Positions 15-4,752 are shown, numbered from the stretch's first letter. The stretch is DNA of 55,536 bases from Gammaproteobacteria bacterium (GCA_041488355.1 JBGPPC010000002.1:1-55536), one strand, 5' to 3'. Made by a program: numbers and translations. The notes: generated by a model not told the origin, from the letters alone.

Positions 15-1346
15 GTGACACTCTCGCCACGAACTGCAGACCTGATCATCACCGCCCGCTGGATCGTCCCGGTCGATCCTGTGGGGAGCGTGCTGGATCG
101 CCACGCGGTTGTCGTCAGCAAGGGCCGCGTTGTCGCGCTGTTGCCGTCGGACCAGGCAAGCGAGGCCTACGCCGCCGCAACCACGGTGGATCTGCCCTTT
201 CACGTCCTCATTCCCGGCCTCATCAACCTGCACACGCATGCGGCCATGACCCTCATGCGTGGCTTAGCCGACGATCTGCCTTTGATGGAGTGGCTCAACC
301 AACATATCTGGCCTGCGGAAGGCAAGCATGTCTCGCCGCAGTTCGTCTATGACGGCACACTGCTGGCGTGCGCCGAGATGCTGCGCGGCGGAGTGACCTG
401 CTTCAACGACATGTACTTCTATCCCGAGCAGGCCGCGCGCGCGGCGTTGGACGCGGGCATGAGGGCCGCGATCGGCATGATCTGCATCGAGTTCCCTACG
501 AGCTATGCAACCGATGCCCAGGACTACCTCCGCAAGGGACTGGCGGCGCGCGATCGCTTTCGCGCCGAGCCGCTGCTGTCTTTTTGCTTGGCGCCGCACG
601 CTCCGTATACTGTAAGCGACCGCAGCTTCGAGCAGATCGTCACCTATTCCGACGAGTTGGAGGTGCCCATCCACATGCATCTGCATGAGACACAGGATGA
701 GATCCGCGAGAGCTTGACGCGCTTTGGCGTCCGGCCGGTGGAGCGGCTCCGAAAGCTCGGCCTTCTCGGGCCGTCCCTCATCGCCGTGCATGCCGTCCAT
801 CTCTCGGAGGAAGAGATCGACCTGCTGGCCGCACAGGGCGCAAGTGTGGCGCACTGCCCTTCCTCCAACCTCAAGCTTGCGAGCGGCATGGCACCGGTGG
901 CCCGGTTCGTCGAGCGCGGGCTCAACACCGGGTTGGGAACCGATGGGGCTGCCAGCAACAACCGGCTAGATCTGTTCGAGGAGATGCGCATCGCCGCGCT
1001 CCTCGCCAAGGCAACCTCGGGGCGCGCCAACAGCGTGCCGGCGGCGACCGCCTTACACATGGCTACGTTAGGCGCGGCACAGGCACTCGGACTCGATCAA
1101 CACCTTGGCAGCATCGCACCCGGCAAGATGGCCGATTTGTGCGCGGTCAACCTCGACGCAATCGGCCTATCGCCCGTGTACCACCCGCTGTCGCACTTGG
1201 TCTATGCGGCCGGCCGTGAAGATGTGTCCCACGTATGGGTCGCCGGCCGCCTCGTTGTCGACCAAGGGCGCCTGACAGGGCTGGACGCTGGCGAGCTGCG
1301 GGCCAAAGCGCGAGCGTGGCAGACGCGCATCGCAGAGCAGTCATGA
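15..1346 (+). CDS. mtaD: Amidohydrolase-superfamily deaminase (MTA/SAH deaminase, TRZ/ATZ family)
   Basis: 443-aa ORF with family motifs INLHTHAAMTLMRG, HMHLHET, VAHCPSSNLKL and GTDGAASNN. Its stop overlaps the ubiG start (ATGA). The mtaD-ubiG-HAD order is known from pseudomonads. Confidence 0.8.
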   Translation: MTLSPRTADLIITARWIVPVDPVGSVLDRHAVVVSKGRVVALLPSDQASEAYAAATTVDLPFHVLIPGLINLHTHAAMTLMRGLADDLPLMEWLNQHIWPAEGKHVSPQFVYDGTLLACAEMLRGGVTCFNDMYFYPEQAARAALDAGMRAAIGMICIEFPTSYATDAQDYLRKGLAARDRFRAEPLLSFCLAPHAPYTVSDRSFEQIVTYSDELEVPIHMHLHETQDEIRESLTRFGVRPVERLRKLGLLGPSLIAVHAVHLSEEEIDLLAAQGASVAHCPSSNLKLASGMAPVARFVERGLNTGLGTDGAASNNRLDLFEEMRIAALLAKATSGRANSVPAATALHMATLGAAQALGLDQHLGSIAPGKMADLCAVNLDAIGLSPVYHPLSHLVYAAGREDVSHVWVAGRLVVDQGRLTGLDAGELRAKARAWQTRIAEQS

Positions 1347-2041
1347 GTGTCAACGTCGATCCGAAAGAGCTGGAGAAGTTCGGCCAGCTCGCTCACCGCT
1401 GGTGGGATCCCAACAGCGAGTTCAAGCCGCTGCACGAGATCAACCCGCTGCGGCTGAGTTGGATCGATGAGAAAGCCGGCCTGCTCGGCAAGCGAGTGCT
1501 CGACGTAGGCTGCGGCGGCGGTATCTTGTCCGAGGCCATGGCCGCGCGCGGCGCCGAGGTGACCGGGATCGATCTCTCCGACCCGGCGCTCAAAGTGGCC
1601 GAGCTGCATCTGCTGGAAAGCGGCGCGCGCGTCAAGTACATGCAGGCGGACGCCGAGGAGCTGGCGCAGCAGCAGCCCAGCAGCTTCGACGTGGTGGCAT
1701 GCATGGAAGTGCTCGAGCACGTGCCCGACCCAGCGCGACAGGTGATCGCGTGCGCACGCCTGCTCAAGCCCGGCGGACACGCTTTCTTCGCCACCATCAA
1801 CCGCAATCCCAAATCCTTCCTCCTGGCTATAGTCGGCGCGGAGTACGTGCTGGGGCTCCTGCCCCGCGGGACGCACGAGTATGCAAGGCTGATCCGACCC
1901 TCAGAGCTATCCGGCTGGTGCCGGCGCGCGGGCTTGAGCGTGGAAGCGATCATCGGCATGCGCTACAACCCGCTCACGCGCATCTATTCATTGGGTCCTG
2001 ACACCAGCGTGAACTACATATTCCACGCCCGCGCCGCATGA
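1343..2041 (+). CDS. ubiG: Ubiquinone biosynthesis O-methyltransferase
   Basis: Internal ATG at 1343 gives MSVNVDPKELEKFGQLAHRWWDP..., with SAM motif VLDVGCGGGILSE. The ORF-track start at 1235 is an out-of-context upstream extension. Confidence 0.92.
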   Translation: MSVNVDPKELEKFGQLAHRWWDPNSEFKPLHEINPLRLSWIDEKAGLLGKRVLDVGCGGGILSEAMAARGAEVTGIDLSDPALKVAELHLLESGARVKYMQADAEELAQQQPSSFDVVACMEVLEHVPDPARQVIACARLLKPGGHAFFATINRNPKSFLLAIVGAEYVLGLLPRGTHEYARLIRPSELSGWCRRAGLSVEAIIGMRYNPLTRIYSLGPDTSVNYIFHARAA

Positions 2042-2730: not shown

Positions 2731-2894
2731 TTGTCCGGGTCGAGAGTCGATCGTCGAGTCGGTGCCATTGCTGTTTCTTAAACCGATTCCCTGACTCCTG
2801 ACATGGGGGCGACCTGGTTTCGACGTGGGTCGCGAAGCAGCGCAGCGCATGCCAAGGTCCAGTCACCTTGTAAATCAGCTGGAAATCTATAGTC

Positions 2895-2927
2895 GCCAAC
2901 GACGACAGCTACGCTCTAGCCGCCTAA
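2895..2927 (+). other. tmRNA tag reading frame encoding ANDDSYALAA followed by a stop
   Basis: AAATCTATAGTC precedes GCC AAC GAC GAC AGC TAC GCT CTA GCC GCC TAA. This parallels the E. coli AUAGUC-GCA resume context and the ...YALAA tag. Confidence 0.85.
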
Positions 2928-3161
2928 TACCGGCTAGACTCTGCTCCCGGTGTGCTCATGGGCCGGATCTGATCCCGCAAGGGTGATGAATGCAGAGTCA
3001 TTCGCATGAGATCGTGCCACGCAGGGTTACTTTGCTCGGCACTAAATCGCTAGGTAACTCGCCAATCATCAGCCCGCCGGCCGGCGGTTGAGCGGTTAAA
3101 TCAAATGGCCAGGCTAAGCATGTAGAGCTGACTGTAGAGGACTTGCGGACGCGGGTTCGAT

Positions 3162-3462
3162 CAGTTCGGGTCGCCTCTGCCCGTAAGGGCAGAGTGAACA
3201 CGGGGCTCACATCGGTGAAACCTGACGCCGCCGAAAGGCGGCATGGCAACGCCGAGGGGTAGGGAGAGGGCCAACCTCAGACCTGCCCTGTAGAGACTCA
3301 TAGACTGGCTGACACCGGGCAACCGGTGAGAGCGAGCACTAGGATTCGTCGATTGAGATGACGGATAACACGCCCCGCATCCTGGACCTGCCACGGTGTA
3401 TGGCCGTGACAAGACAGGATGAAGGCATAGTCCAGCCTGTCTCGAAAGAGACGGATATGCTG
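3162..3462 (+). mobile_element. Group I intron (IC3-like core) inserted in the tmRNA T-loop
   Basis: It follows a U and ends in G. Complementary segments occur in group I order. P1 is 3158-3161/3170-3173, with U:G at the splice site. P2 is 3175-3182/3187-3194 with a GUAA loop. P3 is 3201-3206/3372-3377 and P4 is 3212-3217/3250-3255. The P5 hairpin is 3227-3232/3237-3242 with a GAAA loop. P8 is 3378-3384/3415-3421. A J8/7-like AAGGCATAGTCC lies at 3422-3433. P9 is 3437-3443/3448-3454 with a GAAA loop. TCGGTGAAACCTGACGCC...ATGGCAACGCCGAG resembles the Azoarcus tRNA-Ile intron P4-P5 region as I recall it. Confidence 0.85.
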
Positions 3463-3487
3463 TCCCGCCGCCTCCACCAATGCCCCG

Positions 3488-3524
3488 ACGCCGAGCGGAG
3501 TTTCCGCTCGGCGTTTTCTTTTTC
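3488..3524 (+). terminator. Rho-independent terminator of ssrA
   Basis: Perfect 11-bp stem ACGCCGAGCGG/CCGCTCGGCGT with loop AGTTT, followed by TTTTCTTTTTC. It begins 9 nt after the CCA end. Confidence 0.8.
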
Positions 3525-3533
3525 AGGCGACCT

Positions 3534-4022
3534 ATGGACTACTATCGCGCCGTTAGACAACTTACCGCAGCAGATGCAGCGTACATCGCAGGCCTCGTGG
3601 ATGGAGAAGGCACCGTTACACTCACCACGATGCACCGCGGTGACAACCGGCCGTTGGTGGTAAGCATCTCCAACACCGAGCGTGGGCTGTTGGAGTTCGC
3701 TCAAGCGGCCCTGGGCGCGGGGCAGATCACCGGCAAGCGAACCTACAACGTTAAGCACACCCCCAGTTTCGCCTTCCGCGTCACCAGCCGCCAAGCCGTC
3801 GAACTCTTGCGTCAGGTCGCTCCCTATCTGCGATCCTACGAGGCCGTGCGTTCCTGCGCCCCACCAGCACCCAAACGCCGAGCGGAGTCCCCCCCGGCGT
3901 TCTGTTTTCTTCCTCTCGGAGGTCGGCGTCCAGAGGATCAGGCTTGGCTCATGCGGAACCAAACAAGCCCCACCCGCTCGAAGTTAGAGCAGCGCTCCAG
4001 CGCCTGTGCGGAGTTTTTGTAA
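3534..4022 (+). CDS. LAGLIDADG-family homing endonuclease, probably C-terminally truncated or decaying
   Basis: Starting at the ATG at 3534, the product reads MDYYRAVRQLTAADAAYIAGLVDGEGTVTL... and carries the LAGLIDADG motif. The following beta-beta-alpha-beta-beta-alpha pattern parallels I-CreI up to APYLRSYE. From codon 107 (nt 3852) the frame runs into the duplicated tmRNA 3' fragment and becomes low-complexity. Confidence 0.75.
   Translation: MDYYRAVRQLTAADAAYIAGLVDGEGTVTLTTMHRGDNRPLVVSISNTERGLLEFAQAALGAGQITGKRTYNVKHTPSFAFRVTSRQAVELLRQVAPYLRSYEAVRSCAPPAPKRRAESPPAFCFLPLGGRRPEDQAWLMRNQTSPTRSKLEQRSSACAEFL
3852..3913 (+). repeat. Decayed second copy of tmRNA exon 2 plus its terminator (displaced 3' end, attR-like)
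   Basis: TCCTGCGCCCCACCAGCACCCAAACGCCGAGCGGAGTCCCCCCCGGCGTTCTGTTTTCTTCC aligns by eye with 3463-3524 (TCCCGCCGCCTCCACCAATGCCCCGACGCCGAGCGGAGTTTCCGCTCGGCGTTTTCTTTTTC) at roughly three quarters identity. The acceptor strand is 2 nt short and the terminator stem is broken. Confidence 0.75.
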
Positions 4023-4143
4023 CGCCCGGAGCAGGGACATTCACGGTTACAGGCGTAACAAACGCGGCGACCAATGGAATCCTGTCGTAAGGCCCGAGCA
4101 CTACTCTGCGTTATAACGACGTGTTGGGAGTTGGAGAACGAAC

Positions 4144-4752
4144 ATGAACATAGCATCCGACCGGCCCAGACCCTGGCATCTGACGATGGCTTTGGCTGCA
4201 ATCAGCGCTTTTATCCTGGTCCACCCAGCCGCAAGTCGGGCCGATGACGCCGGCGTTTACGCCGGGCGCTCCCTGCCCTCGGGCCTACCGGCCACCGCGC
4301 AGAAGGATCAGGGGCAGCTCGCGCTCGAACCGGGCAGTGCAGCACTGGGCGGAGATGCGACGCGCCTGGAGGGACAGCGCATTTTCGCTGGTTACCGATT
4401 GGCACCTGGGTTTGCGTTGGAGGGGGCCCAGATCCGAAGCGGCGCTTCCAACTTCGGGACGGGCAACGAGACGATCGTGGTGGCCGGAGTCGGCTCGGTG
4501 CCGCTGAGCGATTCTGTCAGCCTACTGAGCAAGTTAGGGGTGAGCTATCAGACGTCGGCGTTCGCTGGGGGCGGTGCGTCCCTATCGGAGGTCACGAGCG
4601 GCGCGCCGGTTTACGGGCTCGGAGTGTCCGTGCAAGTCCGCGACAACGTCGAAGTGCGTGCGCAGACTGAGCATCTCGGGCGGCCTGCCAGCGCCGTGCA
4701 AGGGCCTGCAGCGTCTGATTCGGTGTTGCTAGGCGCCAATGTCCGCTTCTGA
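4144..4752 (+). CDS. Small outer-membrane beta-barrel protein (OmpA-like/OmpW-like beta-barrel domain)
   Basis: Signal-like N-terminus ...MALAAISAFILVHPAASRA, alternating Gly/aromatic strands, and a C-terminal ...LLGANVRF ending in Phe. The start may be the internal Met near 4186. Confidence 0.55.
   Translation: MNIASDRPRPWHLTMALAAISAFILVHPAASRADDAGVYAGRSLPSGLPATAQKDQGQLALEPGSAALGGDATRLEGQRIFAGYRLAPGFALEGAQIRSGASNFGTGNETIVVAGVGSVPLSDSVSLLSKLGVSYQTSAFAGGGASLSEVTSGAPVYGLGVSVQVRDNVEVRAQTEHLGRPASAVQGPAASDSVLLGANVRF

Follow-up and report, generated by a model that had tools for sequence, protein, structure and literature searches.

We analysed a stretch of 55,536 nucleotides from a Gammaproteobacteria bacterium (GCA_041488355.1, JBGPPC010000002.1:1-55536; hereafter the window, meaning that whole stretch), in which ssrA, the gene of transfer-messenger RNA (tmRNA), is split within its T-loop and is followed by the remnant of a homing-endonuclease gene and by a second, decayed ssrA 3′ end. 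Intron-form tmRNA is already known; what this locus adds is the composite element, in which an endonuclease gene (truncated in this copy) lies outside the tmRNA gene, with the relict native 3′ end behind it. An earlier examination of the locus, referred to below as the sequence-only reading, had recognized the split gene and its intron and ended at position 3479; the adjacent LAGLIDADG gene and the relic lie beyond that point. The features, all on the forward strand, are as follows.

2805–3161, forward: ssrA exon 1, with the 5′ acceptor strand (bearing G3 of G3:U), the pseudoknots, GCGGG as the 5′ strand of the T-stem and the first six T-loop nucleotides (TTCGAT); RF00023, 160 bits, and ARAGORN on the spliced construct
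2895–2927, forward: tag reading frame ANDDSYALAA*, within exon 1
3162–3462, forward: group I intron of 301 nt, IA-type, without an open reading frame (ORF); covariation and a partial RF00028 match
3463–3479, forward: proximal, functional copy of ssrA exon 2, with the last T-loop nucleotide (7), CCCGC as the 3′ strand of the T-stem, the 3′ acceptor strand bearing the U of G3:U, and the ACCA end; sequence and ARAGORN on the spliced construct
3487–3515, forward: intrinsic terminator, a 13-bp hairpin and T-run, between exon 2 and the endonuclease gene
3534–3851, forward: free-standing LAGLIDADG homing-endonuclease gene remnant; PF14528, homologues and the fold of a relative
3852–3912, forward: remains of the original ssrA 3′ end and its terminator, decayed; direct repeat and alignment to an empty-site relative (L212)
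3852–3866, forward: relic ssrA 3′ end proper, TCCTGCGCCCCACCA, contiguous with native downstream DNA

The split ssrA gene

The gene runs from 2805 to 3161 and resumes at 3463–3479, with 301 nt (3162–3462) in between; GGACGCGGGTTCGAT, ending at 3161, forms the upstream side of the junction, and TCCCGCCGCCTCCACCA (3463–3479) the downstream side. As the sequence-only reading had noted, the insert is preceded by U and its last base is G. The Rfam tmRNA model RF00023 scored 160 bits at 2805–3182 of the window (gathering threshold 47), and its alignment could not place the 3′ half of the T-arm and the acceptor beyond 3161. ARAGORN detected no tmRNA in the window as it is; after deletion of 3162–3462, it reported a complete tmRNA of 374 nt with the tag ANDDSYALAA, bearing out the split at 3161/3463 that had been proposed. 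ARAGORN accepts shifted junctions and by itself does not fix the exact splice point; 3161/3463 is the only junction that combines a U before the intron, a terminal G and the 7-nt loop UUCGAUU. In the joined gene this loop is made of TTCGAT plus T, the intron lying between loop nucleotides 6 and 7. The predicted spliced exons join GGGUUCGAU to UCCCGCC, and the uninterrupted T-arm, the putative endonuclease substrate, reads GGACGCGGGTTCGATTCCCGCCGCCTCCACCA. Once the intron is removed, the gene shows the tag frame, the G3:U pair in the tRNA-like domain and the CCA end. Exon 2, only 17 nt in length, is identical across nearly all related loci.

The split gene also occurs on an independent metagenome contig from the Joint Genome Institute (L001), differing only by two substitutions in exon 1, so the arrangement is not a mis-assembly. 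Furthermore, a split at the same T-loop position, with the same U(−1) and G(ω), recurs in 70 other species-level loci, far above chance. These results confirmed that the split tmRNA gene is real. At the intron-form loci compared (the window and L003–L009), ARAGORN called no tmRNA, and the Rfam tmRNA model gave a full-length match with its last ~20 positions misplaced into the intron. Automatic annotation will overlook such genes or set a wrong 3′ end.

Fold and covariation of the insert

A P1–P9 model was drawn on the window sequence, and its pairs were then counted over an alignment (A4) of 70 non-identical homologous inserts with short exon flanks. The helices are as follows.

P1: 3158–3162/3169–3173
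P2, GUAA loop: 3175–3182/3187–3194
P3: 3201–3206/3372–3377
P4: 3212–3217/3250–3255
P5: 3221–3222/3245–3246
P5a, GAAA loop: 3227–3232/3237–3242
P6: 3256–3263/3282–3289
P6a: 3266–3269/3275–3278
P7: 3293–3298/3429–3433
P7.1: 3301–3310/3331–3341, forward, from covariation
P7.2: 3344–3350/3360–3366, forward, from covariation
P8: 3379–3384/3415–3420
P9.0: 3434–3436/3459–3461
P9, GAAA loop: 3437–3443/3448–3454

Standard pairs were found in 94.1% of the 5530 cells, compared with 36–43% when the 3′ partners were slid by 1–3 columns. Double-sided (compensatory) changes occurred in 55 of 82 pairs, and none of 500 shuffles reached any of the observed pairing measures. On these counts the conserved P3–P9 core, with its P3/P7 pseudoknot, has comparative support. 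All helices covaried except for P7, which is invariant and hence uninformative; invariance is common for catalytic-core helices such as P7. The core junctions GUAGAGACU and GAAGG.AUAGUCC were also invariant in the 70 sequences.

The splice sites followed the same pattern. The U:G pair that the sequence-only reading had seen in P1 at the splice site (U3161·G3170) is U·G in 70 of 70 sequences, and the pair adjoining it covaries (G-C in 64, A-U in 4); the four loci with the exon TTCAAT rather than TTCGAT have the matching guide GGTTGCC rather than GGTCGCC. At the 3′ end, the position of ωG (G3462) was occupied by G in every correctly mapped locus, and the 3-bp P9.0, which would draw this last base to the core, likewise covaries, with A-U pairs in 63 of the sequences and G-C pairs in 5.

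The Rfam group I model RF00028 (Intron_gpI) matched the insert over 3301–3454 with 26.3 bits (421 nt searched; E = 8.5e-05), from P7.1 to P9, with a very good fit to J8/7-P7-P9, and scored 43 bits on a relative (L009). When described, the RF00028 seed contained no bacterial sequence, and the cutoff of the pipeline in question was 20 bits (bioRxiv 10.1101/2020.01.27.920355). Taken together, the covariation over 70 homologues and the specific, sub-threshold RF00028 match support the view, already put forward in the sequence-only reading, that a true group I intron occupies the T-loop; to judge from its conserved fold and exons, it is very probably functional in splicing.

P7.1 and P7.2 lie between the P7 5′ strand and the P3 3′ strand and had compensatory changes in 6 of 9 and 6 of 7 pairs respectively (12 of 16 together), with 93–95% of cells paired. 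Helices at this place are the criterion of subgroup IA in the classification of Michel and Westhof (1990), and, because they are present and covary here, we assign the intron on sequence grounds to IA and not to IC3. The sequence-only reading had likened it to the IC3 introns of Azoarcus and cyanobacterial tRNA genes. The resemblance extends to the small size, the bacterial host, the tRNA-like loop, the GNRA-capped P2, P5 and P9 and a similar J8/7-P7 consensus, whereas IC3 introns have neither P7.1 nor P7.2 and reside in anticodon loops; the window intron has both helices and resides in a T-loop. That reading had also left 3290–3362 unexplained: the segment was indeed outside the helices then drawn, and is now taken up by P7.1 and P7.2. 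Its possible P10 (3167–3169/3465–3467) had to be given up, as it overlaps the P1 guide and, with exon 2 invariant while the intron side varies, shows no covariation. The first tmRNA intron to be found was reportedly classed as IA3. A P7.1 region has been named in tmRNA introns too (PMC11915505).

In five relatives (L011, L012, L047, L048 and L063; A4 columns 330–380), the P7.2 or P7.1 loop contains a palindromic insert of ~50–70 nt, CCCTCTCCC...GGGAGAGGG, and a similar one is found in L040 (A4 columns ~255–300). The window intron is without it. This insert may be a small repeat element.

The adjacent endonuclease gene

An ORF starting at 3534, 54 nt past the CCA end of exon 2, matched the Pfam family LAGLIDADG_3 (PF14528) with 28.3 bits (cutoff 22.5) and keeps the motif YIAGLVDGEG, which includes the catalytic IAGLVDGEG. 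We found 549 relatives, mostly of 145–160 amino acids. Homology of the window gene to these stops at approximately residue 106 (nt 3851) of roughly 150, the C-terminal third being absent. An intact endonuclease of 162 residues was considered and rejected: the ORF continues by chance to 4022, and its last 56 codons are read-through into the relic, unrelated to the homologues.

For the fold, an intact close relative (P0005; 81% identical to the window gene across the shared region) was modelled by AlphaFold2 from a 50-sequence alignment, with a pLDDT (predicted local distance difference test) of 89. The top matches of this model in the PDB were I-CvuI, I-CreI and I-MsoI, with template-modelling (TM) scores of 0.66–0.71 over ~148 residues at a sequence identity of 15–21%; the bI3 maturase was also among the fold matches. 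A phmmer search against PDB sequences gave a match limited to the LAGLIDADG helix of I-MsoI. Asp23-Gly24-Glu25-Gly26 was invariant in the 50 homologues. On the modelled αββαββα fold and the retained motif, the window gene qualifies as a member of the I-CreI-like LAGLIDADG homing-endonuclease family. It does not encode a full-length endonuclease domain: relic sequence stands where helices were modelled at 102–114 and 126–140 of P0005. Since these last two long helices of the fold are missing, the window gene is probably dead. I-CreI, I-CvuI and I-MsoI are homodimeric enzymes of algal chloroplast rRNA introns, and the family described here has in common with them the fold, the size of ~150 amino acids, the single LAGLIDADG helix and the conserved acidic residue. 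Unlike theirs, the gene at this locus is free-standing rather than intron-encoded, and the window copy is without the C-terminal helices.

Two homologues occur in other settings. One lies beside McrBC and reverse transcriptase genes with no tmRNA within 5 kb (L007, 5001–5477), and the other, in a metagenome-assembled genome (MAG) of Nealsonbacteria (L089, 412–831), lies ~50 nt past an uninterrupted T-arm-like 3′ end (GTGGGTTCAATTCCCAC).

The insertion block and the displaced 3′ end

The sequence-only reading had suggested a search for intron-less ssrA alleles in relatives, and such alleles were found. In three close relatives (L212, L217 and L216), ssrA is uninterrupted, measures 374 nt and encodes the same tag; these loci have neither intron nor endonuclease gene, and their synteny is that of the window (amidohydrolase, UbiG, haloacid dehalogenase (HAD) phosphatase, ssrA, outer-membrane protein (OMP)). 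Exon 2 and the downstream DNA of L212 are colinear with window 3852–4149, up to the OMP start codon. Within the window, 3474–3501 and 3861–3888 (CCACCA plus terminator) form a direct repeat with 82% identity (z = 9.1 against shuffles). The alignment to L212 identifies the decayed copy further downstream as the original 3′ end of ssrA. Window 3162–3851 is then one insertion of 690 nt: 301 for the intron, 17 for a new exon 2, 54 for spacer plus terminator and 318 for what is left of the endonuclease gene.

A second copy of exon 2 was found at the window and 12 other genome loci, at a distance of only 10–116 nt from the endonuclease stop codon in most of the 12; with a stricter pattern applied to all loci, the count was 20. 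Over the whole set it lies 10–150 nt past the stop codon in most cases (~760 nt in L063) and is often preceded by up to 12–13 nt of uninterrupted T-arm, as in L026, where it reads GCGCGGGTTCGAT|TCCCGCCGCCTCCACCA. These relic copies are truncated or mutated in the 5′ half of the T-arm.

A different state was seen in Seongchinamella unica GH4-78 (L078; NZ_SMSE01000001.1, 2445–3540). Its ssrA is uninterrupted and has a rewritten T-arm, GCCGG-TTCGAGA-CCGGC; an intact endonuclease gene follows with no intron, and then a second ssrA 3′ end of ~55 nt with the standard sequence and the same terminator. From its sequence, this locus looks like an escape from the endonuclease by mutation of the target rather than by an intron.

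Further variants were noted around the insertion. In L063 (1533–2855) and L131 (1576–3245), the second exon 2 is preceded not by a T-arm but by a second intron 3′ end (P9 plus GCTG), so the duplication there covers part of the intron. L003 (5489–6048), syntenic and with an intact endonuclease gene, has ~560 nt extra between the endonuclease stop codon and the resumption of native DNA. L214 (3497–4501) is a close, syntenic relative. Downstream of its uninterrupted ssrA comes an ORF that, by eye, resembles a P4-type integrase at its N-terminus; this would be a classical integrase island at the same ssrA 3′ end as the endonuclease element.

Pairing of intron and endonuclease gene across loci

The endonuclease alignment was scanned against one genome per species, giving 80 loci, or 82 with the window and L008 added. 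The 80 loci are almost all from Gamma- and Betaproteobacteria, with cultured Thiocapsa, Thioalkalivibrio, Methylophaga and Halieaceae among them. At 72 of the 82, a complete split ssrA lies directly upstream of the endonuclease gene, with inserts of 250–453 nt at the identical subsite and 46–186 nt between the end of exon 2 and the endonuclease start. Five further loci are cut by a contig end or missed by the pattern, and still have exon 2 just upstream of the endonuclease gene, so that 77 of 82 endonuclease loci adjoin an intron-split ssrA. The converse search, with a pattern made of the intron 3′ core and exon 2, found at least 120 metagenome contigs and two viral contigs, and 108 loci with enough downstream sequence were counted. 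The endonuclease gene lies 44–187 nt past exon 2 on the same strand in 75 of these, is elsewhere in 7 and is absent in 26. Thus the external arrangement accounts for ~70% of the proteobacterial intron family. The spacing from exon 2 stayed constant despite flanking genes that differ by lineage, such as a HAD phosphatase and an OMP in the window and dihydrofolate reductase and a response regulator in L008.

We also compared the relationships of the two components. The nearest neighbours of intron and endonuclease agreed in 33 of 59 cases, against ~5 expected by chance; agreement with the host tmRNA body was 41 of 59 for the intron and 42 for the endonuclease. Distance-matrix correlations among intron, endonuclease and host exon 1 were weak (0.17, 0.13 and 0.27, of which 0.17 is that between intron and endonuclease). 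Strict co-evolution of intron and endonuclease was therefore not supported by the distances, only the nearest-neighbour agreement being clear. As there is no deep co-partition and the distance correlation is weak, the two look, in these sequence comparisons, like separable partners rather than one locked unit.

Proposed element and alternatives

Our favoured reading, which we hold to be likely, is that a composite of 690 nt entered ssrA at subsite 7 of the T-loop, as a chromosomal collaborative-homing element that is now degenerate in the window. The block would consist of an ORF-less IA intron, a replacement 17-nt 3′ exon with its terminator and a free-standing I-CreI-like endonuclease gene, the native 3′ exon and terminator having been pushed downstream, where they decay (3852–3912). 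Transcription would pass through the intron and stop at the terminator behind the proximal exon 2, yielding a pre-tmRNA. As the covarying fold and intact exons suggest, the ribozyme would then splice itself out, using U3161·G3170 in P1 and ωG3462, and rebuild the T-arm; trans-translation would therefore depend on splicing. In lineages with an intact gene, the endonuclease would cut the uninterrupted ssrA T-arm of naive alleles, repair of the double-strand break would copy intron, exon 2 and endonuclease gene together, and the intron would render the carrier's own ssrA uncuttable. The window element, with the 3′ third of its endonuclease gene lost, is probably immobile, and its intron may have been retained because imprecise loss would destroy the tmRNA.

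Several observations point to the T-arm as the putative target of the endonuclease: carriers nearly always have their T-arm split by the intron, L078 combines an intact endonuclease gene and no intron with a rewritten T-arm and a standard-sequence relic, and in the relic copies the 5′ half of the T-arm is cut short or mutated. A homodimeric enzyme would suit the palindromic T-stem.

Some results weigh against this reading. RF00028, one of the searches that the sequence-only reading had named as checks, did not reach its gathering score of 50 bits on the window intron. The endonuclease copy in the window is truncated, and nothing here is likely to be mobile now. About one intron in four lacks a neighbouring endonuclease gene. 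The introns fall into two deep subfamilies and the endonucleases into one family, with no deep co-partition and the distance correlation of 0.17 given above. Finally, in the window lineage, L019, L014 and L078, the proximal and distal copies have a common host-specific terminator, which simple cross-species homing does not predict and which would need conspecific donors, gene conversion or duplication in situ.

The endonuclease-like protein might instead act mainly as a maturase in trans, its linkage reflecting help in RNA folding and not DNA mobility. Some LAGLIDADG proteins are maturases, the bI3 maturase was among the fold matches, and the gene is tightly linked to the intron. We consider this unlikely, however, since the catalytic Asp-Gly-Glu-Gly is invariant in the 50 homologues, the empty-site alleles and displaced 3′ exon relics speak of insertion at the DNA level, and L078 keeps an intact gene without any intron. 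Moreover, at the window and 24 other loci truncated endonuclease genes coexist with intact introns, suggesting that the intron does not need the protein.

It is less probable still that the duplicated ssrA 3′ end represents the attL and attR of an integrase-type island reduced to the endonuclease gene, with the intron as an unrelated passenger. Although ssrA is a classic integration site of islands that leave duplicated 3′ ends, and L214 has its P4-type integrase-like ORF right after an uninterrupted ssrA, no integrase or other island gene is present in the 690-nt block, which holds only intron, exon 2, terminator and endonuclease remnant. More than 70 species with differing flanks have this minimal set of intron, exon 2 and endonuclease gene, and the boundary of the repeat falls at the T-arm and intron site.

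The adjacency of endonuclease gene and intron could also be coincidental, or inherited by synteny within one clade, as the relationships of both, at short range, mostly follow those of the host tmRNA body. The flanking genes, though, are wholly different between lineages at an unchanged exon 2 spacing, and empty sites exist within the same synteny, which makes such an origin very improbable. Hardly credible is a pseudogene with a non-splicing insertion of superficial group I likeness and a tmRNA supplied from elsewhere: the low RF00028 score and the 55 kb of genome in view, which leave room for a second ssrA, would allow it, but the 94% pairing and 55 compensatory pairs over 70 species indicate selection on the RNA fold, the exons are intact with exon 2 invariant, U(−1) and ωG are universal, and 40 further intron forms were recovered in genomes without a previously identified tmRNA gene (PMC11915505).

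Beyond the window, we lean slightly towards a broader reading of the collaborative-homing element, in which the locus belongs to a widespread, so far undescribed class of such chromosomal elements in Gamma- and Betaproteobacteria. In this class the endonuclease would target the universally conserved ssrA T-arm and travel together with an IA intron devoid of ORFs and an extra 3′ exon, and these two would rebuild an immune and functional tmRNA gene while the displaced native 3′ end decays.

Comparison with known systems and implications

Introns define one of the three standard forms of the tmRNA gene in the tmRNA database survey of 2025; its 883 unique intron-form sequences come from 21 phyla, and every one is split within the T-loop, mostly at subsite 7 (PMC11915505). 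Such genes are reportedly also treated by Williams (2002). The sequence-only reading knew of a clostridial example only and of none described in proteobacteria, a view that is outdated, as Supplementary Table 2 of that survey has 159 intron(7) instances in Pseudomonadota. The window intron agrees with the catalogued ones in host gene, subsite 7 (mapped to the survey's numbering by our reading of its Figure 2 legend), U(−1)/ωG and P7.1, and its 301 nt compare with a catalogued mean of 293 nt. The intron alone is thus a further member of a catalogued gene form and changes nothing known about tmRNA. Endonuclease genes were sought in that survey inside introns only, and were found in 36 of 883 (4.1%), in P7.1 or after P9, a fewness that was remarked on (PMC11915505). 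Unlike in those introns with internal genes, the endonuclease gene here lies outside, past exon 2 and its terminator; in the literature searched, an endonuclease gene outside the tmRNA gene was nowhere described.

The nearest parallels are the collaborative-homing systems of phages, namely mobE of T4 with the I-TevIII-defective nrdB intron (PMC2790892) and, as cited in PMC3984707, F-CphI of cyanophage S-PM2 with the psbA intron (Zeng et al. 2009). In such systems, alleles lacking the intron are cleaved at its insertion site by the product of a separate endonuclease gene; alleles with the intron escape cleavage, and both elements are copied during repair (PMC3984707, PMC2790892). The defining arrangement, a free-standing endonuclease gene adjoining a gene with an ORF-less intron, was found here from both sides of the survey (77/82 and 75/108). 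The putative target at the intron site, the immunity conferred by the intron and the co-conversion would be alike, as read here from sequence. In contrast with the phage systems, the host is a bacterial chromosome, the target a structural RNA gene and the enzyme a LAGLIDADG protein rather than an HNH or Endo VII-like one, and the element brings a substitute 3′ exon, leaving the relic displaced behind it.

Genomic islands and prophages are said to integrate at the ssrA 3′ end (reportedly the theme of Williams's 'Traffic at the tmRNA gene' of 2003, cited in PMC11915505). As with these, the incoming DNA brings a new 3′ end and the native one is displaced as a direct repeat. Unlike them, the element has no integrase, measures 0.7–0.9 kb and not tens of kb, carries a new 3′ end interrupted by an intron, and presumably moved by break repair rather than site-specific recombination.

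These results suggest that most introns of the proteobacterial family are mobilized by an endonuclease gene just outside ssrA, which surveys of intron interiors miss. If so, this would explain why tmRNA introns look endonuclease-poor in interior-only searches, and would provide a natural intermediate in the proposed merging of free-standing endonucleases and introns into mobile introns. Collaborative homing, documented mainly in phages so far, would extend to bacterial chromosomes and to the gene of a ribosome-rescue RNA. The loci also offer a range of naturally occurring states for study, from the empty site through the full element whose relic is intact, the decayed relic and the truncated endonuclease gene to intron-less escape at the target site. 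The predicted target, the highly conserved ssrA T-arm, could be a useful meganuclease specificity.

Two other arrangements were observed at tmRNA genes. In a MAG of a beta proteobacterium (MFD06435.bin.2.147; L024, 389–3400), a group II intron, with Rfam matches at 1173–1457 and 2904–2975, separates the body of ssrA from the endonuclease gene, as a third mobile element at the same spot. In two IMG/VR viral contigs (275 and 152 kb) and one metagenome contig (L210, L211 and L155), a tmRNA T-loop intron of ~690 nt encloses a LAGLIDADG ORF on the opposite strand (in L210, 507–2460, the ORF is at 1036–1479, minus strand), and a tRNA array follows directly. These three look like a phage-borne version in which the endonuclease gene is inside the intron.

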